27,865 nt of DNA from a virus, in IMG/VR virus record IMGVR_UViG_3300045988_046995, positions 1-27,865 of that record, one strand, 5' to 3'. Both the position numbers and the translations under genes were made by a program. This document shows positions 1-27,856 of this stretch, in pieces. A model generated the notes under the pieces. The model was not told where the DNA came from. It searched no databases and worked only from the letters and a program-made list of their open reading frames with translations. The stretch's first letter is position 1. Each line of letters starts with the position of its first letter.

Positions 1-1
1 A

Positions 2-3724: not shown

Positions 3725-4508
3725 TGATAAAGAATTGGAATGAAATGGATTTATCTCATTATAAAAGACTGTTTGAGATAATACGAAAAGACTGGGAAAA
3801 TGAATTAGATATGAATTTAGCTATGGTATCTGTACTTAGTGATATACCTATGGAAGATATAACTAATATGGAAGTAAACAAGCTGCAAGAATTTATAAAT
3901 AATCTTAAATTTATAGAGACTCCATATAAGCCAAAAACCCCAGAAACTACTTATAATATTGGAAATAAAGAATATAAAGTCTTTTTTAATGTTAATAAGA
4001 TGACGGCCAGTCAATATATTGACTTTCAGAATTTTTATAAGCAGTATGATGATTTTATGCCTAATCTAGCAGCTTGTTTCTTACTACCTAATGGAAAGAA
4101 GTATGGAGAAGATTATGACCCTATTGATGAGGCAGAATTCTTAAATACTCATCTAACAATAGATATATTTTCAGACATAATGTTTTTTTTTGTAAACTTA
4201 TTGCAAGTATCAACGCTGAGTACCCTACACTCTTCGGAAAGGGAGATGAAGAAGAGACTAAGGAAAACCAAGGACAAACTGGAAAGGAGGAAACTTCTGA
4301 AGAGCTTAATACAGACGAGACGATTAATCCTTTTACTCAAAAATGAAGCTGAATTATCTGAATAGATAAGGTAAGTGAAGTTACCAGATTTAATTGGCAT
4401 CAGATATATGATATGCAGATTAAAGAGTTCCTGAATCTTATATGCTATGTTATAGATAAAGCTAATGAAGAAAATAGACAGATTGAAGAATGAAAAAGAA
4501 AACATTAA
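3724..4508 (+). CDS. Two-frame gene needing a -1 shift at the T9 run (4183-4191); function unknown, possibly a G/GT-type tail assembly chaperone
   Basis: Frame 0 (3724-4191) looks protein-like up to ...DIFSDIMFFF. After that it becomes a K/R/L-rich tail ending at TAG 4365. The -1 frame from 4191 reads CKLIASINAEYPTLFGKGDEEE...NPFTQK[W]S[W]II[W]IDKVSEVTRFNWHQIYDMQIKEFLNLICYVIDKANEENRQIEE[W]KRKH* and has no start codon of its own. Confidence 0.5.
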
Positions 4509-4509
4509 C

Positions 4510-4559
4510 TGTAACTTTTTTACTCATATTTGGTACTAAGATAATATAAAAAAGTTACA
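4510..4559. repeat. 50-nt imperfect palindrome, copy A (tgtaactttttta...taaaaaagttaca)
   Basis: The 13-bp terminal arms are perfectly complementary, and GTAC sits at the centre. It begins 1 nt after the stop at 4508. It belongs to the same family as 13911-13960 and 22857-22906. Confidence 0.75.
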
Positions 4560-4563
4560 TATA

Positions 4564-4590
4564 AAATAGGGAGTAAACCTCCCTATTTTC
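4564..4590 (+). terminator. Rho-independent terminator-like hairpin
   Basis: aaatagggag / ctccctattt forms a 10-bp stem with a 5-nt loop and a T-rich 3' side. It lies at the end of the terminase module. Confidence 0.6.
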
Positions 4591-4629
4591 ATTAGCTACT
4601 AATATATAAAATAATATATTTTAACAAAA

Positions 4630-5118
4630 ATGAATATTCAAGAATTAAAGTTCTCAAATTTAAGTGAGCTATTAAGGAAGTGAGGAGATCTTATAATTTC
4701 TCTTTATAGACAGGAATTAGTTAAAACCAGATCTGATGACACTGGAGCATTAGGTAATAGTTTAAACTATATAGTTGAGACTCAGGATGGAGACTATGAG
4801 GTTAATTTTAGCTTATTAGATTATTGAGAATATGTTGAAGAAGGCAGAGCTGCTGGTAAATTTCCTCCATTATCTGATATAAAGAGTTGGATTAAAACTA
4901 AGCCAGTAATTCCAAGACCTTATAATGGCAAGTTACCTACTGTAGATCAACTTGCATATTTAATTGGAAGAAAGATACATCTTCAAGGAACTCAAGGAAA
5001 ACATCCACTTGCTAATACTCTAGAATATATAGAGAACAACTATATGGAACTTCTTGATGATGCTATAACTAAAGACTTACAAGGACAAGTAGATTATTAT
5101 TTATTTAAAGACTTTTAA
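4630..5118 (+). CDS. HK97 gp10-like tail-completion/neck protein (putative)
   Basis: DTGALGNSLNYIVE...LLDY[W]EYVEEGRAAGKFPP resembles the TGxLxxSI...YAxYVExG pattern of gp10-family proteins. In-frame TGAs at 4681-4683 and 4825-4827 hide it from the ORF track. Stop is TAA at 5116-5118. Confidence 0.55.
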
Positions 5119-5120
5119 AA

Positions 5121-7301
5121 ATGACATTTATACCAAGTAAATTAGGAATACCAAGAAGTACAGGAACATATCCTGTTAAATGGGAAAATCCAGGATGAGG
5201 TCTTACAGGAGTATATGATTATTGGCTATGAGGAGATGACTATTCAGAAGAGGGTCCATTAGATGTTACTATTTCTAATGCAAGTACAAGTGGTTGTACT
5301 ATTAACTTTACAAATCCCTCAACTATTACAACAGACTCTTCTACAATATTTAGATTATACCCAAAAGGACTGACTACTGCTCAATTAGAAGATACTATGC
5401 CAGTTTATCTTCATAGTCAAGCTCCTGGATATTATCCTGCAAATAGCAGTATAACAGTACCCAATACTGGAGGTACTTATACTGTTGAATATATATTAAG
5501 TAGAGCAGATATTATTAAATGAACTTGTGATGTAGTAAATGCTACTGCTTTAGTGAGTGTTGAGGTATTAGAATGGGATTCTTGCTCTATTAAGTTTAAA
5601 TTCACAGTAAGAGCTAATACTCAATGGAATACAGATTTAACTGGAACTATCCAATTAGGAGCTTATTATGACACTAATAAATTTATTAGTTATAGTTATG
5701 GCTTTAAAATTGAAAAAAGTAATACTCCAGAAGATTTAAAGCTAGTAGTAACTCCTTCATCTGGAACTTATGGAGCATCTGCTTTTGTTACTGAAGAATT
5801 CCATTTAAGTACAACTAAAGCAGAAGAAACAATTACCTCATTTAATGTTACCTGCCCTCAAGCTAGTAATATTAAAAAGGATATTGTTGATAACTATTTT
5901 GTATTAACTGTTCCAGAGAATAAAACTACTAATAATTTAGAGTTTAGTGCAATGGTTACTGCAACAACTTCTGGAGGTTATACTCTTGAAGCTACAGTTC
6001 CAATTAAACAAGCTGCAACATCTTTAATGATTCCTAATACTAATTATGAAGTAAGTTGAACTGCATCTACATTAAATATAATTGGTACAGGCTCAAATAA
6101 CTTAGATGATGTTGTATTTAGTATTCCTGTAGGTTGGATTAGTGGTCAGAAGTTCTCTGTGAATCCTCAAGGTGTAGCAACTATTAGTTTGAACATTGCA
6201 GAAAATTCAGGTTTATCTTCTAGACAAGCAACTATTGGAGTATCTGTTATAAAGAATAGTTCAAGTATTATTAATTTATCTATTAATATTACACAATCTG
6301 TTAAATCTGATATATCTCCTATTTGGAAAGATTATGTTTGGAATGAGATAATCAGTTCAGATTTTATTGAATATCATCTAGATTATGCAGGAGATATGGT
6401 TTATGCTGGCAAGGCTTATAAATATCCTGAAACAGATAGAGTAGAGTTTCTATTAAATAATGTAGCTGAAAATTATCTATCTAATGGAATTATATTTAAT
6501 ACTTCTAAAACTATAATATCTCCAGAATATTTGAAACCATTTACTTTGATAACATCTAGTGGAAATGAAAAACCAATTACTTTCTTCAATGACTGGAGTT
6601 ATAAAGATAGAGATCTAACTAAAGGCACTATGTTAAGTGATCCTATTACTGGTTTAGTTGATCCAAGGCAGTATTTAGTATCAAGTTGAATTCTACCAAC
6701 TGGAACTGGAGTTATTAATAGATTCTTTTATATAGATGGAGTACAATCTGCTATGGATATTAGTTTAAATTCTGGAATTAATGGATATACATATACAGAA
6801 GATTTAAGTAATAAATTATGGCCTTGTGGAAGCTATTTAATAGTAGGATTTGTAGAAGGTGGAAATATTAGTGATAGACAGATTAGATATGATATAGATA
6901 CTACAGGTAAAGATTATGTATTATATTATACTAATTCAGCAGGTGGATGGGATTCATTACTTGTTGAGGGTAATGTTAAAAAGAATGATGAGATTAAATC
7001 TGAAACATATACTCGTAAGGTATTAAATACATCACAAGAGTTTGCAAGAAATAAGTATTTGAATACTATAACTTCAAGCTGGGTTCTTTATACTGGTTAT
7101 TTAAATGATATTCAAGCTTCTAAGATGTTTAATCTAATTGAGAGTACTAAAGTATATTTGCATAATCTTAAAGATAATACTATCACTCCAGTATTGATTA
7201 CTGATACAAATTGCGAATATAAAACTTATACTAATCAAGGTAAAAACAAGTTCTATTATACAATTAATGTAGAAGCTTCTCAAGATACTTATCGTAAATA
7301 A
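5121..7301 (+). CDS. 726-aa virion (tail) structural protein with Ig/BACON-like N-terminal repeats
   Basis: I translated 5121-5552 by hand and found it open. It is in frame with track ORFs 5553-6059, 6159-6689 and 6753-7301. In-frame TGAs lie at 5196, 5229, 5520, 6057 and 6687. Segments such as ISLNIAENSGLSSRQATIGVSV look BACON/Ig-like. Confidence 0.7.
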
Positions 7302-7303
7302 TT

Positions 7304-7783
7304 ATGGAAGTATATAAAGACATTAAAGGATATGAGGGACTTTACCAGATAAGTAATACTGGTAAAGTCTTCTCTATAAAAAACAATAAAGAACTGAAGA
7401 GTGGATATACTCCAGCTGGATATACAAAAGTTCAATTGTGAAAGAATAAGTCTGGCAAGTGATTCAATATTCATAGATTAGTTGCAGAAGCGTTTATTCC
7501 AAACGTAGAAAACTTACCACAAGTAAATCATATAAATGAGATAAAGGAGGATAATAGGGTTGATAATTTAGAATGATGTACAGCTCAATATAATGTTACT
7601 TATGGAAATAGATTAAATAATAATAAAAAACCTGTAATACAGGAAAGCTTAGATGGCACTTTTATAAAGAGATGAAATTCAATTGCTGATACTAAAAAAT
7701 ATGGGTTTGTTCCCCAAAATATAGGACAGTGTTGTATTGGTAATATTTCACAACATAAAGGATATATTTGAAAATATGCGTAA
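7304..7783 (+). CDS. HNH/NUMOD4-type homing endonuclease
   Basis: Contains [53 protein letters not shown][W]C and a C-terminal GYI[W]KYA*. All five Trp codons are TGA and none is TGG. It is free-standing between two tail genes. Confidence 0.85.
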
Positions 7784-10700
7784 AAATATTAAATTATTTA
7801 TTGCAGGAAAAGAAGTACATTGTTCTGAAGGCATATCATTACCAATGACTTATACTGTAGAAGATTTTCAGAATCCAACAATAGTAAAAAATTCATTCAG
7901 TAAGACTATAAGCATTCCAGGAGACAAAAATAATAATAAGATTTTTGGAGAGATTTATAAGTTAGATAGATTTCTCCATATAAAAGAAGGTAATTTCTCT
8001 GGAGTATATTTTGATCCTTCAAAACGAGTTGATTTTGGAATTTATAATAATGGCTATTTAGTTGAATCTGGATATATGCAATTAAATAGCATATCTATAA
8101 AACAAGCTGTCATTACTTATAATATTACTTTATATGGAGGATTAGGAGATTTCTTCTATGGACTTAAATATAAAGAAGATGGTACTATTAGGACTCTTGC
8201 TGATTTACAATACTTTGTAACTGATGAAGATGGAAATACACTTCCTGCTGATACTGAACTTAATTTTTATATTAACAAAGATTTTGTAAATACTTGTTTT
8301 GACTGAAGTAAAACGAATGAAGGAAGTCAAATATATGATTATTTGACATTTATTCCAGCATATAATGGTTTATATGAAGATTTTGATAATGAAAGTTGTT
8401 TAATAAATACTAATGAAAATAGTATATTTCCTACTAGTAAGACAGATTCAGGAGTTACATATACACCTTATAATGGATATGGATTAGCTAAATTAAATAG
8501 AGCATATACAGAATGGGAGATGAGAGATCTTAGAAGTTATATGCAGAGGCCAGCTTTAAAATTGAGTAAGTTAATTGAAACTATCTGTAGAAAAGAGAAT
8601 TCTGGATATGATGTAGTATTTGATCCTTCATTTTTTAATTGAAATAATCCGTATTGAAGTAAATCCTTTGTAGCTTTACCTTTATTATCTAATCTAGTAA
8701 GTGACGAAGAAGATGTAACAGAATCTGGCTTTTTAGTAGAAGATAGTAAATATAATTATCAGGTAGGTATAAATAAAGGAGAATCTACATCAAGTCCTTT
8801 AAAATTATCCATTGCATCACCTGATATTGTTTACGATTCTGGAATAATTGATTTAAGTGAGGCTGGATTTAGAAAAAGCCTTTCTACAACTTTTTATTTT
8901 AAGTTAAAGTTTAATCGAACTGCAGGAAATGTTGGGGATAGATATTTTTTTGGATTTAGAAGGTATTTTAGCTCCTCTGCTCCTCCTTTTTATTCAGCAT
9001 ATAGAGGATACGCTGATGTTTGGCTAACAATTACTAATGAAGTAGATGATACTATTTATACTTCTGAAATACATAGATTTACAAATTCAGGAACCTACTC
9101 ACATCCTATAGCTAATGGGGTTAATCATTTTGGGTATTTTCAAAATAATGTATTTTATGATACTTCTTCATTAACTAATGATTTTGTTATTAATATTACA
9201 AATTTTAAAATTCCAATTAATAAAATTAAAATTAAACTTAATGTTGTATGATCTACTGGAAATAGTGTTAGCCCTACTGGATTATTAAGTGAAGTAATAG
9301 AAAGAGGAGAGGATTACCAAGCTATTCCAAAAGGAGATCTTATAGTAGATCTTACTTCTCCCATTGAAATTACTACTTCTACAGAGGTACTTCAAAGTAA
9401 TGCATTATTAACTAAAAAATTATTATTAAAAACAGAACAATCTCCTGCTGATTACTTATTGAGTTATGCAAAACTATTTGGGTTATATTTTACAAAAGAT
9501 ATTGATAGTAAAACAATTAGAATATATACTAGAAATAATTTCTTTAAGAATATAATCTCTGATTGGAGTAAGAGAATAGATTATTCTAAAGATTTCAATG
9601 TAAATCCAATATTATTTGATAAGAAGTGATATAGAATGAGTTCTGAAGGTCCAGAAACTTATTTTTATAAAAAATACAATAAGGAATATTCTATATTATA
9701 TGGTCAACAAAGATTAAATACTGGTTATAATTTTAATTCTGAAACAACTGAACTGTATAGTGATAATATATATGAAAATATAGTTTCTGCAAGATGGAGA
9801 AATAAATATTTTAGAAATTTTTACAATTCTTCTTCCCTTGTAGTTCCTGCATTTATGAATGATAATATTACCTATACATTATTTAATAATAGCACTACTG
9901 AACTTAAGACTATAGATCAAGAGTTATACGGAGCTAATTTTATAGATCCCTCTAAAACCACAGAATGATATAAAATCGCAGGTAATGATATATTTGCCAA
10001 AAATGTATTTTTCTCAATTGATGGTAATGAGGAATCTTTAGAGGATATCTCTCAATCCCTAGTATTCTTTAACGGTAATGTTCCTTTAACTGATGTAAAA
10101 GGAAATGAAGTAACATATTGAATTACAGATGATCTTACAGAAATGAACATATTAAATGATCAGGAAATGTGTTATATATCTACTAAAAGTGAGAAAGATA
10201 TTAGTGGGAATAAAATTGCTATAAAGAGAACTGTATTACCTCAATTTACAAGGTATACCGTTTCGTCCTCTAATGTTACTGCTTCTTGAGATTTTGGATT
10301 ACCACAAGAGATTTATATTGATGATATAACTTATAATATCGGAAGTACTATTTATAGTAGATTCTGGAGTGAATTTTATAATGATCAATTTGATGTAAAT
10401 ACTAAAAAAGTTACCTGCTTTGTAAGATTGGATAATTTAGATGTTAAATATGATTTACTTAGACAGTTCTATTATTTTGAAGATTCTTACTGGGTACTTA
10501 ATAAGATTGATGCTTATGATATTAATTCAGATTCTACAGTTAGATGTGAATTTATTAAAGTTCAAGATATTAATAGTTATTTAGCTGGAGTTCAAAATCT
10601 AGATGAATATATATCATTTGATGATTCAGATCCAGTTGTAGATTATAAAGCTGGGACTAAAAAGATTACAGTTACTTCTAATATTCCTTGAGAATTAGGA

Positions 10701-11132
10701 TGATATAGTCCAAATGAAATTGTAAGCATTACACCTGAATCTGGGCAACCTGGAGAAACAGAATTAACAGTTACTTATAATGAGAATACTAAATATGACC
10801 AAAGAAGTTTCTACTTTAGTCTTTATAAACAAGGAAGTATAAATGGCCCTCAATGTATGTTTACTCAAACTCCAGACCCAAATAAAGCTATTCTTATTAC
10901 AGGAAAGCTTCAAACTTCTACTGGAGGTATTCCTTCTGGCGTTAATCAGATTCTAACTGAAAATGATAATTTCTTAAATGTCACTTATATGAGAGATGAT
11001 GGAAGTTATAGAATATATGCTCAAAATGGAGTTCAATTTTTATTTAGAGTATCTGACGGACCAACAGGAACAATTAAATATACAGAGAATTTAACACTAA
11101 CAGAAGATACTGTTAAAAATATTACAATCTAA
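7776..11132 (+). CDS. 1118-aa tail/baseplate protein (Tal-like or tail-associated; function uncertain)
   Basis: Track ORFs 7737, 8343, 9636, 10428 and 10857 share one frame. I translated 8643-9635 and 9969-10427 by hand and both are open apart from TGAs. The C-terminus has a BACON-like segment (ITPESGQPGETELTVTYNENTKYDQRSFYF). Stop TAA overlaps the next ATG (TAATG). Confidence 0.7.
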
Positions 11133-13900
11133 TGGCACAAACAGAAATTAAAAAAGTAATTAGTATTGATACTAAGTCAAGTAATAAGTCAATAAACTCT
11201 TTAAAGAAAGATATTGACGCATTATCTAGTTCTCTGAATGATTTAGAGATTGGTACTAAGGAATATAATGAAACTCTTGCATTACTAGGTAAAAGACAAT
11301 CAGAGTTCAATAAAATTAATGAGCAGATAGCAAGATCTTCGAGAACTACTGCTCAAAGATTTGAAAGTGTAGCTAAAATATCCACTGGCTTAGCTAGTGG
11401 ATATGGTGCTGCAACTGCTGCTATTACTTTATTTGGGAAAGAATCAGAAGATTTAAATAAAGTAATGGTTAAGTTACAATCTACTATTGCTTTAGTTCAA
11501 GGTGTGGGAGGTATAAAAGATTTATTAGAAGAATTACCCACTTTAGGTAATTGGTTTAAGAAATTAACTGATTTTATTTCCCCATTTAATACAGGATTGA
11601 ATAATGCTGCCAAAAACCTTAATCAGATTGATACATCTAAGCTTAATGGCATTGGCACATCTGTTGGTAATGTTGGAACTGAATTAGGTAATATCTCTAA
11701 AGTAGTCAAGGATTTAGAAGGCACCAATATTAATCTCAGAGGTGGAATGGTTCAGGGTATGCTTGGAACTCCTGCTGAAATATCTGCTTCTAATAAGAGT
11801 GTATCTAATACGATTCCAATTATAGGTAAATTAGGAGAAACTGCAAAAAAGTCTTTTAAAGAAGTAAAACCTACATTTACTACAGTTGCTGAATTTTTAA
11901 AGGAAGCAGCAAAAGAGACTGGAACTCCAGCAGAGAGAATGCAGAAAGCTGCTAAACGTTTAGGTGTAGATCTTGCTGAATTAAAGGAAAATGTAGAAAA
12001 AGGCATTCCAACTTTGCGAAAAGGAGCAGAGGCTCAGAAAGCAATGGCTGAAGCTTCAGAACAAGCTGCTTCTGGAGTAGGTAAAGTTAAAACTGCACTT
12101 AAAACTATTGGTAATGTAACTGTATGAATTGCATTAGCTACAGCTATTGGAGTAGCTATTAATAAGATAATAGAGTATATATCCTCAATAAAATCAGCTG
12201 AAAAGGAGGCTGCTGAATTTAGAAAGTCTATTACAGATACTACTAATCAGATTGCTTCTAAATCTATAGCTATCTTTAGAGAGCTCCAAATAGCTTACGA
12301 AAGGGTTGGAGATTCTGCAGATGCTAAGCGTAAGTTTATAGAGCAATATTCAGATAAGATTAAAGAGACTGGTTTAAATATCACTGATGTAAAGACTGCA
12401 GAAGATGCGTTTGTAAATAATACTGGTAATTATGTAGAAGCATTAACTGCAAGAGCAAAAGCTCAGGCTATTGAACAGGCTGCAATTAAGCTTTATGAGG
12501 AGTATTTAAACAAACGTACTGAACTGGAGAATCAAATTTCTGATACAAGTTTTGGAGAGGTATCTGCTTGGCAGGCTTTTAAAGCTACAGCAATGTTCTG
12601 AAAAGATTATTCAAATACAATTTATGAGTATACAAAGCAAAATAAAGAGAATACTTATAAACAGTTGGATGATTTAAATAAAGACATTGAGAAAAGGCTT
12701 AAAAAGCTATTTGAGGATGTAGCAGATACTAATAAAAAGTATGGTGGGTTCTTTAATATTCCAACTATTACAAAGAACACTACTGAAGCTAAGAAGGTAA
12801 TAAATGAATTTGATGAATGGCTTCAAAAGAGATTAGAGGATAAAGACCCAGTAGATGAACTTGAAGATGAATATATTAGACTATTAGCATTAGCTATTAA
12901 GTATAATAGGGGAATTGAAGAGGTAGAAGCTTGGCATCAGGAAGAACTTAAAAAGATTAGAGATAAAGCTAGAGCTGATGAAGAAGCTAAGCGTAAAGCA
13001 GATGCAGATAAAGCTTGGAATGATCTACAGTCTGAATTAAAAAGGATTAGAGATTTATCTTCTACAAGTAATTTGAGAGAGCCAAGAGAGCAGACCTTTC
13101 AGACTACTTATACTCAAGGTATATCGAAAGCATTTGGATTGGCTGGAGATTATGAAGGGACTGGTTATAAATTTACATATCAGAGTAGAGAGGACTTAGA
13201 GAATCAATACAATGCTCAAATTGAATACAATAACAACTTACTCTCATTAACTCAAGGTAGAATAGAGCAAGAGAATGCCTTATTAAATCAGCAATTAATG
13301 AATGAACAATTAACTGCTGAACAAAAAGAGGAAATTCAAAGAACTCTTACTGAGAATAATATGGCCTTATCAGATGCTCAATTAGCTAATGAACAGGCAA
13401 ATACTCAGGCTTATCAAAATCTTCAAAAAGCAAGACAGCAAGCTTTACAGGGAACTTTATCTGTAGCTTCAAGCATTGCAGGAAGTATGGCAAGTATTTG
13501 GGGAGAAGAGAGTAAAGTTGGAAAAGGATTTGCTACTGCACAAGCTTTAATTGACACTTATTCAGCAGCAAATAGCGCATACTCTGCTATGGCAGGAATT
13601 CCTATTGTAGGTCCTGCTTTAGGTATTGCTGCAGCTGCAGCCGCAGTAGTTGCAGGTATTGCAAATGTTAAAAAGATTTGAGAAGTAGATGAATCAGGTG
13701 CAAGTGGAGTGAGTGGAGCATCTGCAGCAGTGGCAGCACCAGCTGCTTTAAATACAGCTCCTGTTGAATATACTCGAAACTTACTTGGAGATAAAGAAAC
13801 TGACCTTTTAAATGAACCTGTTAAGTGTTATGTTGTTGAATCTGACATTACTTCAGCTCAAACTAAGGTAGCAGTTACTGAATCTAATGCTTCATTCTAA
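11132..13900 (+). CDS. Tape measure protein (922 aa)
   Basis: Coiled-coil rich, with Gly/Ala hydrophobic segments (GLASGYGAATAAITLFG; GIPIVGPALGIAAAAAAVVAGIA). Track ORFs 11132, 12665 and 13709 are in the same frame. The gaps, translated by hand, are open, with TGAs at 12125, 12599 and 13679. Confidence 0.8.
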
Positions 13901-13910
13901 AAATATTTAG

Positions 13911-13960
13911 TGTAACTTTTTTATTCTTATTAACTACAAAATATGAGTAAAAAGGTTACA
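13911..13960. repeat. 50-nt imperfect palindrome, copy B
   Basis: tgtaacttttttattc / gagtaaaaaggttaca forms a 16-bp stem if two G-U pairs are allowed. It begins 10 nt after the tape-measure stop. Its first 13 nt are identical to copy A. Confidence 0.75.
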
Positions 13961-14012
13961 TTAGATATTCTAAAAATATTACAAATTTATAAAGTGCTAT
14001 ATATTAATAAAA

Positions 14013-14606
14013 ATGGAAATTACTTATAATGATCTTCCATTATTTCAGGCAGTGATTACTGATGATTGTGATGGAATAGAATATGTTGCTTTAACAAGTA
14101 AACCAGCTACACAAGTTAACTGGGTTGCTTTTAGTAATTCTCAGAAGTTCTCGATGGATGAAGATAAGCATTTAGTAACATCTTGCTTAATGTTAAGTGA
14201 TACTCCAATTTTCAGACGAGATGAGAAACTCGGAGAATACTACATACAGTATGATAAGGAAACTCTTCGTAAAATGGCAGAGAAGATGCTGTATGATAAG
14301 AGAACTACAGATGTAAATATTGAACATTTAGAAGATTCTGATTTAAATGGAATTACTCTACAAGAAATCTATGTAAAGGATATTAATAGAGGAATATCTC
14401 CAGTTGAATTCCAGGATGTTCCTGATGGTTCTTTATTTGTCACTTATAAAGTAGATAATCAAGTTATTTGAGATGCAATTAAAGCTGGTAAGTTTAAAGG
14501 GTTCTCAATTGAAGGTTTATTTACTTTAGAGAGAAAGTCTGATGAATATGACGAAATAAAAGAGATCCTTAATATGATTAAGAAGATAAAAAGAGTTAAA
14601 CATTAA
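14013..14606 (+). CDS. XkdF-like prohead serine protease (putative)
   Basis: DVNIEHLEDS...GSLFVTYKVDNQVI[W]DAIKAGKFKGFSIEGLF matches the XkdF-family C-terminal pattern (W..vk.G...GfSieG). The conserved Trp is the TGA at 14469-14471. It lies upstream of the scaffold and capsid genes. Confidence 0.7.
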
Positions 14607-14619
14607 AATTATTAATTAA

Positions 14620-15222
14620 ATGAGCAAATTCACAAGAATCAAGCTTGAATTGGCTAAAATGCTTGCAAAGTTCAGTGATATTAAAACTGATAAGGCAGTA
14701 CTTACTTGGGATTCAGATGAAGACTTACGCGCTGGTATGGATGTATATGTTCAGGATGAGAACGGAGAATACAAACCTGCTGAGGACGGTGAGTATGTAA
14801 CTGAGGATGGAAAGACGATTGTTGTTAAAGACGGTAAAGTAGAGTCTGTAACTGATCCTAAAGCTGAGGTTGATCCAGAAGAAGCAGCTAAAGCAGAAGT
14901 TGATGCTGCTTGTGGAAAACGCAAGGTAGAAACTGCTGAAGAGCCAGTTGATCCTGAAGTAGCTACTGATGGTGACAAAGAAACTGTAACTGATGCAATT
15001 GATGCAATTCATCGCGAAATTAATGAGCTTTATGACATTGTTGATAAGCTTGTTAAGAAAGTAGCTGAATTAGAGGGTAAATCTGAAGCTACAGAAAAGA
15101 CGGTTGAAAAGATGAGCAAAATGAGTGCTGCATTTTCAGCTGAGGAACAGATAGAAGGCAAAGCTTCAATAATGACTGGTAATCCTGTTATTGATAAAAA
15201 GCTTAAAAACTTTATTGGTTAA
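14620..15222 (+). CDS. Scaffolding protein (putative)
   Basis: Acidic, helical and low-complexity (AEVDPEEAAKAEVD..., INELYDIVDKLVKKVAELEGK). It sits between the protease and the capsid gene. No TGA. Confidence 0.6.
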   Translation: MSKFTRIKLELAKMLAKFSDIKTDKAVLTWDSDEDLRAGMDVYVQDENGEYKPAEDGEYVTEDGKTIVVKDGKVESVTDPKAEVDPEEAAKAEVDAACGKRKVETAEEPVDPEVATDGDKETVTDAIDAIHREINELYDIVDKLVKKVAELEGKSEATEKTVEKMSKMSAAFSAEEQIEGKASIMTGNPVIDKKLKNFIG

Positions 15223-15244
15223 TTATTAAATTATTTATAAAATT

Positions 15245-16150
15245 ATGGCAAATAGTCCTGTAATGACTAGTCTTACTGCTTATGTAGAGCAGAGACGTCT
15301 TCCTCTTATTAAAGAGGCTGTATTAAAGGCTAAGAGTGCTTCGTTGTTCAATCTTCAAACTGACATCAAAACTAGTGCTGCTCTTAACCTGTTATCAACT
15401 GCTATTCAGTTTGGCGATGGCCTAGCTTGTGGTTGGGATGAAGCTGGAACTCAGACTCTTTCTCAGAGAATTCTAGCTACTGGTAATATTAAGATCAATA
15501 TGGCATATTGTGATAAAGAGATGCTTAAATACTGGACTCAGTATCAAGTACGAGTAGCTGCTGGTCAGAAGACGCTTCCTTTTGAAGAGGATTTCGTAAA
15601 TGCAGTAGTTGAGAACGTTAAGGCTGCTATCGAGACTGCTATTTGGCAGGGTGATACTGCTTCTGAAACAAATAACCTGAAGTATTTTGATGGTCTGTTA
15701 AAGATCTTAAAAGATGCTGCTGGTACTGTTGATGTAACGATTACTGGTACTTCTGCTTACGATGACATTATGGCTGTTTATAACGCTATTCCTGAGAAAG
15801 TACTTGATGGTGCTTCTATCTTAGTAGGCGCTGATACCTTCCGTAAATTTATCCAGGAGTTAGTTGCTAAGAACTACTACCACTATAGTGGTGAGAATCT
15901 TAACGGTGAGATTATGCTTCCTGGTTCACAGGTTAAGGTTATTGCTGTTAATGGTCTTAATGGAACTGATAAGATTGTTGCTGGTCAGTTAGATAAGAAC
16001 TTCTTCTATGGTTGCGATATGATGAACGATGAAGAGAAGTTTGAATTGTGGTATTCACAAGATTTCCGCGAATTTAGATTAGCTATTGAATTTAACGCTG
16101 GCGTACAGGTTGCATTCCCTGATGAGGTAGTTCTTGGTGCCAAAGCCTAA
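15245..16150 (+). CDS. Major capsid protein (HK97-fold type, about 301 aa)
   Basis: Position after the protease and scaffold, size, and composition all fit. Codon usage is visibly biased and less AT-rich. The 4 Trp codons are all TGG and there is no TGA. Confidence 0.75.
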   Translation: MANSPVMTSLTAYVEQRRLPLIKEAVLKAKSASLFNLQTDIKTSAALNLLSTAIQFGDGLACGWDEAGTQTLSQRILATGNIKINMAYCDKEMLKYWTQYQVRVAAGQKTLPFEEDFVNAVVENVKAAIETAIWQGDTASETNNLKYFDGLLKILKDAAGTVDVTITGTSAYDDIMAVYNAIPEKVLDGASILVGADTFRKFIQELVAKNYYHYSGENLNGEIMLPGSQVKVIAVNGLNGTDKIVAGQLDKNFFYGCDMMNDEEKFELWYSQDFREFRLAIEFNAGVQVAFPDEVVLGAKA

Positions 16151-16188
16151 TTTCAATAGAGTTTAACTTTAAATAAGATTGAAATTAT

Positions 16189-16713
16189 ATGGCTTGTTTA
16201 ATAACTATCGCTGGTATTACCCTGGATTGCGAATCTTCGCTTGGTGGTATCAAACAGGTATGGATTACTCAGTACGATAATGTTAAGAGTGTAGCTGTAG
16301 ATGATGAGACTAATCAAATCTCAGCTATTACTCTTGAATCAGATGCTAAATGGTATAATTACCAATTCCGCAAAGGTACTGGTTCTCTAACCTCAACATT
16401 GAACGTTGACGAAACTGCAGGAACCAACTATGTAAGTAATGAGCTTGCTCTTGTATTTACAAAGATGGAGACTAAGAAAAGAATCGAGATTGCTGCTCTT
16501 TCTATTGGACAACTTGTAGTTGTTGTAGAAGATTCTAATGGCAAATACTGGTTCTTAGGAAAAGATGACTATGTAAGCGCTTCCGCTGGTACGGGTGTTA
16601 CTGGTACTGCAAAAGGTGATCAGAACGCTTATACGCTGACTTTAGCTACTGACTCTGAATCATATCCTTATGAGTTGAGTGCTGAAGCTATTCAAAGTGT
16701 TGTAGGTGCTTAA
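16189..16713 (+). CDS. Major tail tube protein (putative; a head decoration protein is not excluded)
   Basis: 174 aa, with capsid-like codon bias and no TGA. Motifs include LGGIKQVWIT..., VVVVEDSNGKYWFLGKDDY and GDQNAYTLTLATDSE. A strong terminator follows directly. Confidence 0.45.
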   Translation: MACLITIAGITLDCESSLGGIKQVWITQYDNVKSVAVDDETNQISAITLESDAKWYNYQFRKGTGSLTSTLNVDETAGTNYVSNELALVFTKMETKKRIEIAALSIGQLVVVVEDSNGKYWFLGKDDYVSASAGTGVTGTAKGDQNAYTLTLATDSESYPYELSAEAIQSVVGA

Positions 16714-16722
16714 CAACAGAAG

Positions 16723-16760
16723 AGGGGCGAGTATTAATTTACTTGCCCCTTATTTTGTTT
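16723..16760 (+). terminator. Rho-independent terminator
   Basis: aggggcgagt / acttgcccct forms a GC-rich 10-bp stem (one G-U pair) followed by tattttgttt. It begins 9 nt after the stop at 16713. Confidence 0.8.
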
Positions 16761-16803
16761 ATATACCACATAATGAATAATTTATATTTTATAGAAAAAT
16801 AAT

Positions 16804-19236
16804 ATGGCAAACGAAACTGAAAAGACAATTCTTCCCTATCTTAATGTCCTTGAAGTCGAAACAATAGATAAGTCAAATGTGACTAAAGTTATTGTTATTG
16901 ACAAGGATGATGAAGTTAAGGTTATGGATGGTTCTCAGTTAGCTACTAATAGCTATTTTGATCTTCAGGATAAACCTGAGATCAATAGTATTGAGTTAAA
17001 TGGTAATATGACTTCGGAAGAGTTGGGATTAGCGTCATCTGAAGATATTGTTACTATTAATTCTGAGTTAGAGCAAATAAAGAGTACTATTCCAAGTGCT
17101 GAAAATATTGATAATCAGATAACTGAACGATTAGCTGATTATCCAACTAAAGAAGAGGTTACAACTGAAATTTTAGATGCAGTTGCCAATAAAGCCGATA
17201 AATCTGAGATACCAACAAAAACTTCACAATTAACTAATGATAGTGGGTTTATTAGTAGCTTAGATGGATATGCTACTGAAAAATGAGTTGAAGATAATTA
17301 TCTTACAAAAGAAGCTACTGAAAGTGCATTAAATTCTAAACAGAATAAATTAAACCAAGGTGATGGTATAGTAATTGAAGAGAATACTATTTCTGCAGAT
17401 TATAATACTATTCGTAACAAACCATCTTTAAATGGAACTGAATTATCTGGAGCAGCTTCAATCGTACCTGCCATTAATATTCAATCAGTCCCATCTAAAG
17501 TTACTTTAGCTCCTGTATTTGGTAATCAAACTGGAGAAGCAGTTGAACTTCCAATATATAATACAGAGACTAATCAAGCTGGTATTGTTAATGGTCCTCT
17601 ATATGCACAATTAGCAGATAAATATACCAAAGCTGAAATTGATGCTTTAAATACAGCTATTAATAAAGAGATAGCTTCAAAACAGGAAACGCTTACAGCA
17701 GGAAAGAATATATCTATTATAGATAATGTAATCTCTGCTTTTGAGAATCATTTCTTACTTAATTTAGATGAGAATGATCCTGTAAGACAGAAACATATCT
17801 ATGACTTTATTAGAACTAATCTGGACTTCTATTTATTCTGCCAGATTACATATAAAGGTGATATTATAGTTATTCCTGTTGCAACTATTGAACATCCCGA
17901 AACTATTGATTTATATGGCTATTATTTTCAAGATAATGGTGTATTAGTAGTTATTAATGCAATCTTAGTAAATAATGGTAATATGACTGTTAAAGTTACT
18001 GAGGTTGATCTTACTAATAAAGGTTATACTAAAGATGAAGTAGATGAGAAACTTGCAGCTAAGCAAGGTGTATTTACTCCTCAAGCTCCATTAGCTTTTA
18101 ATGAAGATAAATCCCAATTATCTGTAGATTTATCTGGATACCAACCAGTTGGTGATTATGCAACTAACGATTCAGTTAATGAGGAAATTGAGACTCTAAG
18201 ATCTTCTTTACAAAGTAAGATTGATGCAAAACAAGATAAAGGAGATTATGCTTTAAAGAGTGATATTCCAACTAAAGTTAGTGAGCTTACTAATGATTCT
18301 AACTTTGTAACTGAAGCAGAGGTTTCTGGAGATTTAGCAGGTAAAGCAGATAAGACTTATGTCGATGAGCAGCTTGCTACTAAACAGCCTGTAGGAGATT
18401 ATGCAACAAAAACAGAACTTGCAGGTAAAGCAGATTCTTCTGTAGTAGAATCTTTATCTACTCAAGTAGCAACTAATACTTCAGATATATCAATTATTAA
18501 AACAAAACAAGAAGAAGATGGAGATAAGATTGATTCTCTTGATAAAGAGATGGCTACTAAGCAAGATTTACTTGTAAGTGGAACTAATATCAAAACAATC
18601 AATAGTCAATCTTTACTTGGAGAAGGTAATATAGAAATTGAAAGTGGATCTGATATTCCATTTCTATTTATAAATTCCACTGCTCATCTTTCTGGAGATT
18701 TCGCTGCTGTTAAGAATGCTATAGCTAATAAAACACCATTTGAGATTTATTATGTAAATATTCTAGGTTATGGTGATATAGCAGCTCCAGAAGTATGTTT
18801 TGTTTCAGGAGAAAATATTCAAGCTACTTTCCATTTTGAAAGTACTACAGCTAATCATACTGTAGTTCAAACTACTATTACTCCAACTGGAGTATCAGCA
18901 GATACTAGTTATCATAGTTATCAGGAGCAATTAGTCTCTGGGACTAATATAAAGACTATTAATGGTGAAAGTATTTTAGGAGAAGGTAATCTTGAAATAT
19001 CTGGAGGTGGAGGGACTACTGATTATACTCAGTTAACAAATAAACCTCAGATTAATTCTGTTGAGTTATCTGGCAATAAGAGTTTATCAGATTTAGGTAT
19101 TCAGCCTGCTGGAAACTATATTGAAGCTGGAACTGGAACCCAACCTCAAATAAATACTATTACTGTTCTAACTCAATCAGAATATGATGGTTTATCAACT
19201 AAAGATCCTAATACACAATATTTAATTGTAGAATAA
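16804..19236 (+). CDS. Tail fibre protein (810 aa)
   Basis: Track ORFs 16804 and 17983 are in the same frame and are joined through TGA 17284-17286 (ATEK[W]VEDNY). I translated 17287-17982 by hand and it is open. Repeated fibre motifs include SQLTNDSGF / SELTNDSNF, DYATK..LAGKADK, and two copies of LVSGTNIKTIN..LGEGN.EI. Confidence 0.8.
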
Positions 19237-19237
19237 T

Positions 19238-20359
19238 ATGAATATTAGAGATGATTTAAAAACATTTTATGTAGGTGACAGACAAGGTACTGCTATTTAT
19301 GTTGGCAGTACCAAAGTCTGGCCTATCAATCCTTGTAATCCACAAATAGTTACAGTTGCTAATCCAGTTCCTCAAGGTACTACAATAGTTGATCCTTGTA
19401 GTTATGTATTTAGCAGTTATGATGGAACTATAAATGATATACAAAGGGATTGAATGGGTAGAGGATCTGGCCTTACTTCTACAGTAATTAGTTTTACTGC
19501 TGATTTAAGTGAATTAGCCCTTAATATAGATGGTGTACCTCTTTGTAGTATTATAGGTTCTGCTCAAACATATGCAGATGTAAAGTTAAATAGTGGAGAT
19601 TTAAGTAGAAAAGGAGGGTTTTTTAAAACATCTCATTTTGATCTAAATAACCAGGAGATTACTAATCTTAATGAAGCATATGGAAGATGGTCTAGTGAAT
19701 CTCAATTTTGGGGTCAAACAATACATAGTGCTACTTTATCTAATGTTAAAATACCTACAACTACTAAAGAAGTAAGTGCAAATTATTTATTTATTGGAGT
19801 AAAAATAGATAATAATGATTTCTCTGTAATGAATAATTTTCAAAATCTTGTATTAGTAGATCCAAAATGGGCATTTGCAGATACAGCTGATGGAGCTACT
19901 AATATAGATAATATAACGATTAATATTCCATTTAAAGGAGATTGTAATCATATGTTTCATAGAGCATTATATCTAACAACTATTCCAAGTAATTTTACCT
20001 TTACTGGAATTACAGATATAAGCTATATGTTTAGTACTTGTAGTAGATTAATAGCTTCACCAGAAATAGATTGTCATCTTGTTACAGATTGTACTAGTTT
20101 TGCGGCATCTTGTCCAGAATTAGTAACTGTAGGAGCCTTAAATGGATTGGGAGAGAGTTTAACTGAAGGTGGCCTGCTATACTTTGCACAATCTCCAAAT
20201 TTATCTGAAGATTCATTACAAACTATAGCAGAATCTATTGGCACAGCAGTAAGTTCTAATACAAGTATTTCATTAAAATCTACTGCATACGATAAATTAA
20301 CAGATGAACAAAAATCATTAATAGCTTCAAAGAATTGAAGTATAAATCGAGTTGCATAA
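19238..20359 (+). CDS. DUF285/BspA-like leucine-rich-repeat receptor-binding protein (putative), paralogue 1
   Basis: Track ORFs 19238 and 19454 are in the same frame, joined by TGA 19451-19453. Repeats are of the type CNHMFHRALYLTTIP / ISYMFSTCSRLIASP / CTSFAASCPELVTV. The C-terminus is LTDEQKSLIASKN[W]SINRVA*. Confidence 0.65.
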
Positions 20360-20361
20360 TT

Positions 20362-20598
20362 ATGAAAATTGAAATTAAAGAAAAATATAAAGTAGTTAGT
20401 CCAGAAGAAGGTTATATACTTACTAACTATAAAGAAGGAATGGATATTAAATTATACAGTTCATTTACTGAATGTATCTGTCCTTTAAGTTGCGATTTAG
20501 AGCATCTATCAGAAGTCTCTTTAGATAAGGATGCTGAATATAAAGAATTAGCTATTAAAGCTTCTAAAGAGTATGAGGAATCAATAAAAGTTAGATAA
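20362..20598 (+). CDS. Hypothetical protein (78 aa)
   Basis: Open frame from ATG 20362, tightly packed between neighbouring genes. No recognisable motif. Confidence 0.45.
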   Translation: MKIEIKEKYKVVSPEEGYILTNYKEGMDIKLYSSFTECICPLSCDLEHLSEVSLDKDAEYKELAIKASKEYEESIKVR

Positions 20599-20600
20599 TT

Positions 20601-21320
20601 ATGATTATACTTAAGAATACTAAAAATACACAAACTTTCTATGTTAGTAAGAAATGTGGTATTGAATCTGGACAACTTCCTGTTGGTTCTTATACTAAGA
20701 TTGAAGCAGATGAAAGATTCCAACCTAAAGGTAATTACATTTCTGAAGAGAAAGCAGAAGAGTTAATTAATACTAAAGTAACAGAAAGTATTGAAGATCA
20801 AGTTCCTCCTTTAGTAGATCAATCTATTGATGCTAAGCTTGTTCCAATTAATACTGAGATTACTAATCTTAAAGGGGAAGTTGAGGAGTTAGAAACTTCT
20901 AAGATGGAAGTATTCCAAGCTAATCAACCTCTATCTTTACATAGAAATGGAGAAGGTTTGCAACTATCTGTAGATTTAAGTAATTATGCAACTAAAGCAG
21001 AAATTCCTGATACTAGTGATTTTGCTACTAAAGAAGAGCTTACAGCTGTTGAAAGTGAAGTTGGAAATAATTCTTCTAAGATTACAGCTATTGAAAGCAA
21101 ACAAGAAGAGGATGGACTAAAGATTGATGCATTAGATAAGGAAGTTGGGACATTAGATGCAAATAAAGCAGACAAATCGGAACTATCTAATTATGTAACA
21201 TTAGAAGTATATAATGCTAAGGTTTCAGAATTAGAAGCTGCTATTCAAGCTTTACAGGCACAAATCGGAACTATCTCAACTACTCTTGATACAATTAATG
21301 GTGAAATTCCAAATGAATAG
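20601..21320 (+). CDS. Coiled-coil fibre-like protein (second fibre module)
   Basis: Shares motifs with the fibre at 16804-19236: [25 protein letters not shown] versus QAPLAFNEDKSQLSVDLSGY, and [17 protein letters not shown] versus KTKQEEDGDKIDSLDKE. No TGA. Confidence 0.65.
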
Positions 21321-21834
21321 AGTATTAACAAATTATCCTAACTATAGTGTATCTTCTACAGGAGATGTATATAGTAACCCATTGACTTTTAAAGATTCTA
21401 TTGGAAGAACCAGAAAACAAATACATAAAAAGCTAAAACAGCATATAGATAAATATGGCTATAATTATGTAATTCTAGTATCTGGCTTAGATAAACCTAA
21501 AGCTATTAAAGTTCACAGACTAGTAGCAGAAGCATTTATTCCAAATCCTGACAATCTACCATATGTTAACCATATAAATGAAAATAAGACAGATAATAGG
21601 GTAGAAAATTTAGAATGATGTGATACAAAGTATAATAATACATATGGAACTAGAATAAATAGATGTATTGATAAAATTAGTAAACCTGTAGGGCTATTTA
21701 TTAATGATTTACTAGTTAAAACATATAAAAATGCAATTGAAACATCAATAGATGGGTATACTCATAGTAGAGTTATAGATTGTCTTAAAGGAAGAACAGA
21801 CACTTATAAAGGGGTAAAATTTAAATATATCTAA
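21313..21834 (+). CDS. HNH/NUMOD4-type homing endonuclease
   Basis: Contains [14 protein letters not shown] and [34 protein letters not shown][W]C, with the TGA at 21616-21618, then continues to ...YKGVKFKYI*. It overlaps the stop of the upstream gene. Confidence 0.85.
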
Positions 21835-21835
21835 T

Positions 21836-22852
21836 ATGGCAAATACAATTTCTGATAAATTAACGTATCTTGAAGGTACTAAGAGTGCCATTAAAGATGC
21901 TATTGTAGCTAAAGGTGTTGCTGTATCAGATTCCGATACCTTTAGAAGCTATGCAGATAAGATAGGACAGATTTCTGGAGGTGGTGGAGGAAAGGTTAAT
22001 TTAAATGATTATGGATTAACATTTGCATATTCTAGTCCTACTGATAATCAAGTAAATCAGATTATCTTTGATTTACCTGATTTTACAAGTACGAGAAATT
22101 TTTTTTCGCATATGCAGTCTCCTAATGCATATATAAATCTGTTTTCTATGTGAAATACAGGTTTAAATTACGATTGTTCGGGTATGTTGAGTAATGCTAA
22201 AATAAATCAAATAGATTTCCCACAGGAAATTACTATACGCGATGGCAATAATATGTTTAGTAGTTTTAATGCTAATGCTTTAACATTAGATACAATTATA
22301 CTACAAACTAATACTGCTTGATATGATTTAAGTCAAATGTTTAATTCTTCTAATGTTGTATGCAATCATATAATTATTAGAGATGAAGAAAATGATACTC
22401 CGTATGTTGTGTTTAATGCCACTTTTGCCAATTTAACATCTACTATTACTACTCTCCCAGATATTAAGTTTGAATTAGTAGGATCATCTATTAATCTTGA
22501 ATGTGGAGGTACTTATAGTTATTTACCTGATACAATTACAACTTTGCCAGAATGAGATTTAACAGGTGTAAATGAAGGTCAGTCCTTTAATAATTGGCCT
22601 TTTTATAGTTGGGAATCTCCAAATACATCAATAACTGATATGGAAGGTATTATAAATTTAAGAGTGGAATTAAATTTATCTTTACTCCAGTCGTTAAATA
22701 GTGCAGCTATTGATAACATTTTAAATAAAGCTGCTGATTTAACTGGAGAAGTATCTCAAACTATTACATTTGCAGCAGATGTTTATAATGCACTTACTGA
22801 AGAACAGAAATCATTAGCTACATCTAAAAACTGAACTTTAGCATCAGCATAA
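21836..22852 (+). CDS. DUF285/BspA-like LRR receptor-binding protein (putative), paralogue 2
   Basis: Track ORFs 21836, 22337 and 22640 are in the same frame. In-frame TGAs lie at 22151, 22319, 22553 and 22832. The N-terminus is DKLTYLEGTKSAIKDAIVAKGV and the C-terminus is LTEEQKSLATSKN[W]TLASA*, parallel to the gene at 19238-20359. Confidence 0.65.
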
Positions 22853-22856
22853 ATTT

Positions 22857-22906
22857 TGTCAGTTTTTATTTTTTCTTAGTACTTTGAGTGAGTAAAAAAC
22901 TTGACA
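22857..22906. repeat. 50-nt imperfect palindrome, copy C
   Basis: tgtcagttttta...taaaaaacttgaca, with AGTACT at the centre. It is 50 nt long like copies A and B and begins 4 nt after the stop at 22852. Confidence 0.65.
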
Positions 22907-22940
22907 TTAAAGGAGGCTTAGGTCTCCTTTAATTATTTTA
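22907..22940 (+). terminator. Rho-independent terminator-like hairpin
   Basis: ttaaaggag(gc) / (g)tctcctttaa forms a stem with a 4-nt loop, followed by ttatttta. It directly abuts palindrome C, the same arrangement as at 4510-4590. Confidence 0.6.
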
Positions 22941-23008
22941 ATACATTAGTAAATTGGTTTATATTTTAAGAAAAAGATATGTAAAACTAATGTAAATTGC
23001 TGTAAAAT

Positions 23009-23401
23009 ATGAATTATACTTTATTAATGCAAAATACAATTACTAAAGAAGTTTATGTATATAACTTAGAAAATCAGAATTATGCTGAAAATATCTACTA
23101 TAAGTTTGATATTACATTATCTGATGATATGCCTGATGGTGAATATCAGTATATTCTGTTTAGTAATCCAAATAAACTTGAAGTAATTGTAGATGTAAAT
23201 AATCCTATGCAGTCAGAGCTATATGGTAATCCAGTTATTCTGGTAACTTATGAAAATACTCTTACTACAGGAACACAGATATTAGTTGCTGGTAAACCTA
23301 TACCTGTATTGAGTTCAGGACTAATAAGAGTTGGAGATTATCAGAATAATAAATACCAATACGATAAACAAAACAAATATATGGCTTATGAGCGAAAATA
23401 A
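23009..23401 (+). CDS. Hypothetical protein (130 aa)
   Basis: Uninterrupted ORF and first gene after the spacer. No motif recognised. Confidence 0.5.
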   Translation: MNYTLLMQNTITKEVYVYNLENQNYAENIYYKFDITLSDDMPDGEYQYILFSNPNKLEVIVDVNNPMQSELYGNPVILVTYENTLTTGTQILVAGKPIPVLSSGLIRVGDYQNNKYQYDKQNKYMAYERK

Positions 23402-27841: not shown

Positions 27842-27856
27842 CCCTCCTTTTTGTTT
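27825..27856 (+). terminator. Rho-independent terminator
   Basis: aaaaggaggg / ccctcctttt forms a perfect 10-bp stem with a 7-nt loop that contains the TAA stop. A T-run follows. Confidence 0.75.

Follow-up and report, generated by a model that had tools for sequence, protein, structure and literature searches.

A clade-restricted family of 50-nt intergenic hairpin repeats in a recoded human-gut phage, tentatively read as transcribed stem-loops at operon ends

The DNA analysed here, positions 1-27,865 of the IMG/VR record IMGVR_UViG_3300045988_046995 and referred to as the window, covers the late region of a phage; its GC content is 31%, and all late-region genes lie on the + strand. When it is read in genetic code 4, in which TGA specifies tryptophan, the open reading frames (ORFs) of the window make the + strand almost unbroken coding sequence; the conserved tryptophan of an NLEW motif in paralogous endonuclease-like genes is then encoded by TGA, and in another paralog by TGG. 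The late genes also include fibre-like genes and an M15 peptidase, and no Shine-Dalgarno sequence occurs anywhere in the window. Only five intergenic gaps of some size are left, and three of them are filled by imperfect palindromes of 50 nt that belong to one family. This hairpin repeat, with its copies A, B and C in the window, is the subject of our analysis.

4510-4559, copy A, core TGAGTAAAAA on the - strand (inverted relative to B and C), 1 nt past the TAA at 4506-4508
13911-13960, + strand, copy B, 10 nt past the stop codon (13898-13900) of the 922-aa gene 11132-13900
22857-22906, + strand, copy C, 4 nt past the stop codon (22850-22852) of the gene 21836-22852
about 4563-4590, + strand, intrinsic terminator (GC hairpin and T run) directly 3' of copy A, fold -13.6 kcal/mol
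about 22906-22943, + strand, intrinsic terminator directly 3' of copy C, 12-bp stem and TATTTTAATA, fold -15.6 kcal/mol
16722-16751, + strand, intrinsic terminator at a control junction without palindrome, fold -24.3 kcal/mol
2441-3724, + strand, large terminase
11132-13900, + strand, 922-aa tape-measure-like gene, the last of the tail block
14013-16150, + strand, protease, scaffold and major capsid protein (head operon)
23388-24479, + strand, portal

The sequences and coordinates of the three copies given in a first-pass annotation of this DNA, each 50 nt from TGT to ACA, are exact. The gaps of 1, 10 and 4 nt that it placed between the stop codons and the palindromes are also borne out, and they hold only because the window is read in code 4. 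Its description of the stems can be kept as well. Copy A has a perfect stem of 13 bp (+ strand RNA fold -11.8 kcal/mol, z = -4.2). In copy B the stem runs to 16 bp, two of them G·U, with a 4-bp apical stem in addition, and the RNA folds at -17.7 kcal/mol (z = -7.4) against -9.9 kcal/mol on the - strand. The stem of copy C is interrupted and rich in G·U pairs, and its RNA folds at -10.7 kcal/mol against -6.1 kcal/mol on the - strand, with a z-score of only -1.9. Folding and a terminator scan confirmed that A and C are each followed by a separate GC hairpin and T run; no GC terminator follows copy B in the window. The strict consensus that had been derived from the three copies, TGTNASTTTTT-N-AAAAASTNACA, turned out to fit A only, since B has AAAAGG and C an extra T. 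Copy A proved to be inverted with respect to B and C: against the family's covariance model its - strand scores 69.5 bits and its + strand 33.1 bits, and 44 of its 50 nt are identical to copy B.

Palindromy alone is not significant in such DNA, because a shuffled window contains about 2.7 generic TGT…ACA hairpins with folds of -8 kcal/mol or lower; the family resemblance is significant. A covariance model built from the variants found only A, B and C in the window, at E <= 4e-11, and its next independent match had E = 3.7. The half-site TGTNASTTTT matches the + strand only at the three sites, where about 0.1 matches are expected for a 10-mer of that composition. These two scans and the occupancy of the sites in relatives show that the family is not a product of chance. 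None of the three sites matched an Rfam family, even with E values up to 1 allowed, and literature searches on related topics brought up no account of the hairpin repeat. It is a new family, of an already known kind, intergenic hairpin repeats at phage operon boundaries.

The relatives that could be compared are about 55 IMG/VR and about 56 metagenome contigs, from human gut where the source is labelled. GenBank phages gave no nucleotide or capsid-protein match to the phage, and among GTDB genomes two distant contigs of metagenome-assembled genomes were the sole relatives. Searching the complete genome and these relatives for the motif brought out further copies, D and E, and a restriction to one clade. 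In the close relatives, human-gut phages of about 31 kb with capsid proteins at least 89% identical, the A, B and C sites are all occupied, and copy B is identical in sequence in 25 loci and copy C in 31. The repeat is absent from all relatives with a capsid identity of 70% or less, and no relatives at 70-90% came up in the collections searched. In the distant relatives L078 and L080, whose junctions were examined, plain terminators are followed by the same TATATTTTA box that precedes the late operons of the window (see below), with no palindrome. Among the matches listed from a scan of 2.9 million viral contigs for the pattern, the convincing copies all came from this phage clade, and the convincing matches in metagenomes likewise fell within it.

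The contig of one relative (085915) closes into a circle of 31,032 bp, and the genome reconstructed from it carries a fourth copy, D, outside the region equivalent to the window. Round this circle the copies are spaced fairly evenly, at about 0, 5.8, 14.8 and 24.2 kb. Copy D lies in the leftward early region. In the sense direction, tandem TTTG-N20-TAnnTTTG promoters come before a GC hairpin and its T run, and D follows after 10 nt, ending 34 nt upstream of the ATG of a replication-like early gene of 572 aa. That gene is free of TGA codons, unlike the late genes. A fifth copy, E, is present in part of the relatives; it lies 2 nt past the stop codon of the 572-aa gene and 20 nt before the next ATG, at a site with neither terminator nor promoter. 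Genomes of the clade carry 4-5 copies, all of them intergenic and in mixed orientation. Copy A of the window is identical to D, read in its local sense, at 46 of 50 positions and shares 8 nt of flank with it; other relatives have a forward-oriented element at site A. Relative to local transcription, B, C, the forward-type A and E are forward, and D and the window-type A are inverted, so that neither a rule of the sense strand nor one of the genome's + strand fits every copy. At site B many relatives (L043, L044, L059, L061, L073 and others) have two additions before the element, a second direct copy of the core, AGTGAGTAAAATTTATGACA, and a perfect hairpin of 20 bp; together these can fold into a composite structure of -42 to -49 kcal/mol, which would compete with the canonical hairpin.

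Alignments of 20 to 35 variants give a consistent anatomy. The TGT and ACA ends are invariant, the 5' arm is T-rich but variable, and the centre contains TA(N)TAC. The 3' arm is rich in purines (…UGAGUAAAAA…ACA) and holds a 10-nt core, T(G/T)AGTAAAAA, which has zero entropy in 35 variants; the core stretch of this arm includes GAGUAAAAA. The stems are rich in AU and GU pairs, with a GC content of 0.16-0.27. The core-bearing strand folds better as RNA because the 5' arm pairs with the purine-rich arm largely through G·U: the mean fold of this strand is -11.0 kcal/mol and that of its complement -6.3 kcal/mol, 32 of the 35 variants fold better on the core-bearing strand, and the median structure of that strand has 18 bp (21 at most) with two G·U pairs. 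RNA z-scores lie between -3.5 and -7.4 in six of eight variants tested, the exceptions being copies C (-1.9) and D (-2.9), whereas the DNA z-scores of the G·T-rich variants are only -0.65 to -2.0, which is background.

Weighing covariation of the arms against conservation of their sequence gave a divided answer, in that the outer stem covaries, which speaks for RNA structure, and the 10-nt core is invariant. Compensated outer stems include TGTAAC/GTTACA, TGTCAAG/CTTGACA, TGTCTAT/ATAGACA and TGTCTAT/GTAGACA. In one alignment (A4) 89.2% of the cells at paired positions can pair, compared with 82.8% after shuffling (none of 500 shuffles reached the observed value) and 44-65% when the partner was slid along. 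Four pairs of this alignment change on both sides, and its covariation score is 0.136 against 0.037 for shuffles, again with none of 500 reaching it. We regard the covariation as supportive rather than as proof, because the sequences are related and palindromes can correct themselves mechanically.

The reading that we favour, tentatively and with somewhat less than even confidence, is that the hairpin repeat is transcribed and forms a stem-loop at the ends of operons, where it would serve either for processing of the RNase III type or as a barrier to exonucleases. We prefer an RNA stem-loop because pairing is strand-specific and depends on G·U, because stability is greater as RNA than as DNA, and because the outer stem shows compensatory changes; the helix of nearly two turns, the position of A and C after a stop codon and ahead of a terminator, and the intercistronic copy E point the same way. 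At both A and C the palindrome precedes the GC terminator, and it does so in all relatives despite differing terminator sequences; after copy A, for example, the sequence of the terminator differs among relatives and its architecture of hairpin plus T run is kept. The better-folding strand is the local sense strand at four of six site classes (B, C, the forward-type A and E). The bacterial RNase III substrate is idealised as 22 bp, and many substrates in the cell do not exceed about 20 bp (PMC3867540). The helix of the repeat, 18 bp in the median and 21 bp at most, comes close to the two turns (about 20-22 bp) of such substrates and is slightly shorter.

Transcription of the repeat is something we infer only from its position. 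In the proposed mechanism, RNA polymerase would pass the stop codon of an operon's last gene into the U-rich 5' arm, a loop of 8-24 nt and the purine-rich 3' arm. The RNA helix would then form (18 bp in the median case, up to 21), ahead of the intrinsic terminator at A and C and by itself at B and E. A double-strand-specific nuclease of the RNase III type could cut this helix and so separate the fates of the messages of neighbouring operons; alternatively, the helix could block 3'-to-5' exonucleases. The first-pass annotation had offered three roles for the palindromes, and the one in RNA processing or stability is, as a prediction, the best supported of them. Its variant, a cruciform bound by a protein, is unlikely, because the centres are non-palindromic over 18-24 nt and the DNA hairpin z-scores of most variants are weak. 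The invariant 10-nt core suggests an additional, sequence-specific partner.

The R sites of phage T7 and the sib element of phage lambda are RNase III hairpins in polycistronic phage transcripts. The hairpin repeat resembles them as a set of related hairpins of about 50 nt, with helices of about two turns, in intercistronic or 3' positions, beside terminators and not acting as promoters. It differs from them in its mixed orientation, in the invariant 10-nt core in one arm, in stems made of AU and GU pairs only and in its 4-5 copies. It has no sequence similarity to the T7 sites, and RNase III cleavage of the repeat is a prediction. If the RNA reading is true, the repeat offers a testable case of post-transcriptional punctuation in a stop-codon-recoded gut phage of Bacteroidota type, a group of phages for which, to our knowledge, almost nothing has been reported on mRNA processing, and the invariant core would point to a partner that recognises sequence.

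Several observations weigh against this reading. A transcribed structure would be expected in uniform sense orientation, and D and the window-type A are oriented against the local transcription. The sense hairpins of inverted copies are weaker in some relatives (-7.6 against -11.2 kcal/mol for copy A of L045), and the sense strand of the D variants averages -6.3 against -9.0 kcal/mol. The 10-nt core is fixed while its pairing partner varies, which a purely structural role leaves unexplained. Chimeric arms with only five of seven outer pairs persist in several contigs, and copy C of the window barely beats its shuffles (z = -1.9). In many relatives the 5' arm at site B would be drawn into a different and stronger pairing (-44 kcal/mol). 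The element is also dispensable, because sister lineages lack it at similar junctions of terminator and promoter box. Finally, compensatory changes can arise from template switching or from gene conversion between arms, without selection on RNA.

An alternative that we think unlikely, while giving it more credit than the others that follow, is a site acting at the level of DNA. The core T(G/T)AGTAAAAA and the TGT/ACA ends would be bound, on double- or single-stranded DNA, by a phage or host protein, which could be a stoperator-like regulator or roadblock, a replication or priming factor or a recombinase, and the complementarity of the arms would be secondary. This would account for a core that stays invariant in 35 variants while the opposite arm drifts, for the mixed orientation relative to transcription (A inverted or forward depending on the relative, D antisense) and for the extra direct core copy AGTGAGTAAAATTTATGACA at site B of many relatives. 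The position of D, 34 nt before the replication-like 572-aa gene and beside early promoters, and the fairly even spacing of the copies round the 31-kb circle would also suit it. However, the outer arms covary rather than hold one recognition sequence, and they are not equivalent half-sites, their mismatches being G·T. The half-sites would be about 38 bp apart, and for most variants the stability of the hairpin as DNA is near background. Moreover, we found no candidate binding protein, and the element is missing from sister lineages that have the same genes in the region examined. The closest precedent is provided by the stoperators of mycobacteriophage L5 (cluster A), asymmetric repressor sites of 13 bp, of which this temperate phage has 20-30 per genome, oriented with transcription. 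Like these, the hairpin repeat is one short conserved motif repeated in intergenic gaps of early and late operons; unlike them, it is a 50-nt hairpin in mixed orientation, and inspection of the ORFs showed no repressor or integrase.

It is also rather improbable that the repeat is a selfish or near-neutral palindromic sequence, resembling a repetitive extragenic palindrome (REP) or a miniature inverted-repeat transposable element (MITE) or representing a recombination scar, in permissive gaps of a single lineage. Gene conversion, together with recombination between relatives infecting the same cell, would keep its copies similar, and any use as homology patches in module exchange would be a by-product. 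Such an origin agrees with the occurrence in one narrow clade, down to its absence at 70% capsid identity or less, with the variable copy number (E is present or absent), with the flip of orientation at site A, and with the likeness of the window-type A to D over 46 of 50 positions and 8 nt of shared flank. Arm types common within one genome, chimeric arms, shifts of identity between relatives at B and near C, termini of the form TG…CA and a 13-nt direct repeat, TTCTAAAAATATT, that flanks copy B can be counted on the same side. That 13-nt repeat is the sole flanking repeat, however, and target-site duplications are absent at A, C and D. Inspection of the ORFs of the 31-kb genome showed no transposase or RAYT-like gene (RAYT, REP-associated tyrosine transposase), with no family search of the early genes behind this negative. 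There are only 4-5 copies, none outside the clade among the matches listed from 2.9 million viral contigs; the homologous sites are occupied in all close relatives examined; mosaic junctions are equally common inside genes; and the strictly invariant core argues for constraint.

Enterobacterial REPs and the bacterial interspersed mosaic elements (BIMEs) built from them are known to stabilise upstream mRNA; REPs are GC-rich, number hundreds per genome, have a conserved GTAG and are linked to RAYT transposases. The hairpin repeat is like REPs and BIMEs in being a set of several extragenic imperfect palindromes past stop codons and near terminators, with variable orientation and concerted evolution. 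It is unlike REPs in being few, AT-rich and located in a 31-kb phage with no RAYT-like gene seen on ORF inspection. Other marks of REP- or MITE-like elements, namely duplications, a transposase (again judged by ORF inspection) and spread to unrelated genomes, were not found. If the repeat is only a selfish one, its interest is confined to phage mosaicism.

The idea that the palindromes are recombination joints, which was meant to explain a shuffled order of modules, draws faint support from the pattern of identity and fails on the order itself. The alignments of many relatives stop exactly at 13901 and resume at 13967; this break at B is largely an indel, owing to the extra half-element and 20-bp hairpin in relatives. 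In 40% of relatives the identity changes by at least 10% across B, and 73% show such a change about 200 nt past C; chimeric combinations of arms exist among the elements, yet about 13-15 comparable shifts or mosaic junctions lie within genes. The repeat does not explain module order, because gene order is the same in all aligned close relatives. A comparison is offered by the promoter/stem-loop (PeSL) cassettes of T4-type phages, repeated composite motifs at gene and module boundaries that provide homology patches for modular shuffling; they consist of a strong sigma-70 promoter and a GC-rich terminator stem and occur about 50 times per genome (PMC2839356, PMC4122927). The identity breakpoints at B and near C and the chimeric elements recall these cassettes. 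The combination of promoter and terminator that defines the cassettes is missing from the hairpin repeat, whose promoter-like box is separate and whose stem is not a terminator, and most mosaic junctions of the phage are elsewhere. By analogy with PeSL cassettes, the repeats may serve as occasional crossover points.

We consider it very unlikely that the palindrome is itself a factor-independent or factor-assisted terminator or a pause hairpin, reinforcing the GC terminator at A and C and acting alone at B. A GC hairpin with a T run does adjoin three of the four sites of the full genome (A, C and D), and copy B has the strongest stem in the window (-17.7 kcal/mol) at a site with no other terminator. 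But no U tract follows the stem at any copy, the stems are rich in AU and GU pairs, and the terminator scan reports the adjoining GC hairpin and not the palindrome. Copy E is internal to an operon, with a start codon following after 20 nt; at D, the sense direction has the GC hairpin first and the palindrome after it; and elsewhere the phage has canonical terminators (16722-16751, 27824-27852).

We give only a slight chance to a trans-acting antisense network between the inverted copies (D and the window-type A) and the forward ones (B, C and E). The sense transcripts of the two classes would be complementary over about 45 nt, and the duplexes predicted for A:B and D:B have -42 kcal/mol against -10 to -18 kcal/mol for single hairpins. 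On such a model, late messages would pair with the early leader by loop-loop kissing and then as an extended duplex, on which a double-strand nuclease would act to shut off the early gene; the core would be a motif for nucleation or recognition, and D and E, where both flank one gene, could pair the two ends of its mRNA.

The weakest proposal, which we find scarcely credible, is that the 5' arm is the -35 element and the centre the -10 element of a promoter for a group-4 sigma factor of the phage: a central (G/C)TAC does lie 16-17 nt downstream of a TGTAAC-type 5' end, and TGTAAC with a T run resembles -35 elements of extracytoplasmic function (ECF, group-4) promoters such as those of the Bacillus sigma-X/sigma-W type, but the AAC varies among copies (TGTAAC, TGTCAG, TGTCTA, TGTCAA), transcripts from A and C would meet terminators within about 50 nt, the conserved 3' arm is given no reason, and a separate box, TATAT(A/T)TTA, stands at all five late operons, two of them without a palindrome, and is kept in distant relatives that lack the palindrome. 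The sigma factor that had been assigned to 309-858 also dissolves into two adjacent small ORFs with a generic helix-turn-helix (HTH) match only. ORF 601-858 matches HTH_50 at 32.9 bits, and its Sigma70_r4 and r4_2 scores of 18-20 bits are below the Pfam cut-offs; ORF 309-596 has no domain match. The two ORFs are adjacent if TGA is a stop codon and overlap by 17 nt if it is tryptophan, and the pair could encode a two-piece sigma-like regulator or simply an HTH protein.

The box copies in the window are as follows.

1712-1720, + strand, TATATTTTA box, at a junction without palindrome
4615-4623, + strand, TATATTTTA box, candidate promoter element of the operon starting at 4630
13998-14006, + strand, TATATATTA box, upstream of the head operon (start 14013), conserved in relatives
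16783-16791, + strand, TATATTTTA box, at a junction without palindrome
22960-22968, + strand, TATATTTTA box, upstream of the operon starting at 23009

They lie 10-45 nt before the first start codon of all five late operons, and elsewhere the + strand of the 27.9 kb has a single TATAT(A/T)TTA, in coding DNA at 9484. Where a palindrome is present the box is 38-56 nt downstream of it and separable from it. TATAT(A/T)TTA is likely the late promoter core; it resembles what we take to be the consensus of the Bacteroidota -7 motif, TAnnTTTG, minus the final G. The analysis thereby corrects the promoter assignment and names a likely late promoter box (TATATTTTA) as well as early promoters of Bacteroidota type, and it yields a covariance model of the hairpin repeat together with about 35 of its variants. 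The early promoters, tandem TTTG-N20-TAnnTTTG sequences near copy D, face both directions (L006, L009, L015, L024, L028, L040 and 085915). The leftward early leader has a conserved hairpin with a T run whose sequence varies by lineage and which looks like an attenuator. A Bacteroidota host is suggested by these promoters, the lack of Shine-Dalgarno sequences and the A-rich contexts of start codons. We also considered whether the palindrome is itself a Bacteroidota-type promoter and rejected this, as TTTG-N19-21-TAnnTTTG has no match in the window and the centres of the inverted copies are only loosely -7-like. The terminal CTTGACA as a sigma-70 -35 element was set aside too: a consensus -10 element follows only at site B of some relatives, and terminators follow at A and C.

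Other leads around the palindromes were dropped. The hexamer CATTAG after all three sites is due to chance, as it occurs 18 times on the + strand and 21 times on the - strand. A small ORF starting in the 3' arm (ATG/GTG/TTG-AGT-AAA-AA) is unconserved in frame and stops after four codons in L073. Comparisons of conservation between element and flank from BLAST tracks were left unused, since paralogous copies cross-align. A field of GTTACA/TGTAAC iterons with a 53-nt palindrome in viral contigs from isolate genomes (L001 at 3650-3950, L008, L013, L016, L018, L022, L034 and L042) is unrelated to the repeat; it follows a P4-alpha-like primase gene on the downstream side and probably acts in cis in the replication of a satellite-like element.

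With respect to the genetic code, neither the window nor the complete 31-kb circular relative encodes a tRNA, despite late genes in which TGA is tryptophan. TGA might be decoded by a host with code 4 of its own, or with the help of a suppressor from the host.

The gene that follows the terminase (3724-4365) contains a run of nine T at 4183-4191, past which the -1 frame stays open for 104 more codons, to 4508, 1 nt before copy A. By analogy with the G/GT pair of tail chaperones, the run could bring about a programmed -1 frameshift, though one that is unusually placed; PHROG and Pfam gave no match for either product.

At least six ORFs of the window (1-308, 840-1406, 7304-7783, 21298-21834, 24445-25137 and 27503-27841) resemble homing endonucleases, as called by eye from NLEW…/HNH-type and GIY-YIG-type motifs. 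Several of them vary by presence among relatives, with breaks at 7301/7772, 16798/16786 and 24437/25115.

The phage is also found inside larger contigs, IMGVR_UViG_3300045988_175865 (148,631 nt; L040/L059) and ORSJ01000015.1 (L205; 175,808 nt). These could reflect an integrated prophage or an assembly that concatenated co-occurring strains; as regards the prophage, inspection showed no integrase-sized ORF among the listed ORFs of the 31-kb genome region.

The late region ends with a strong bidirectional terminator at 27824-27852, which has an 11-bp stem and T runs on both strands, and at which late and early transcription converge in the circular relative.

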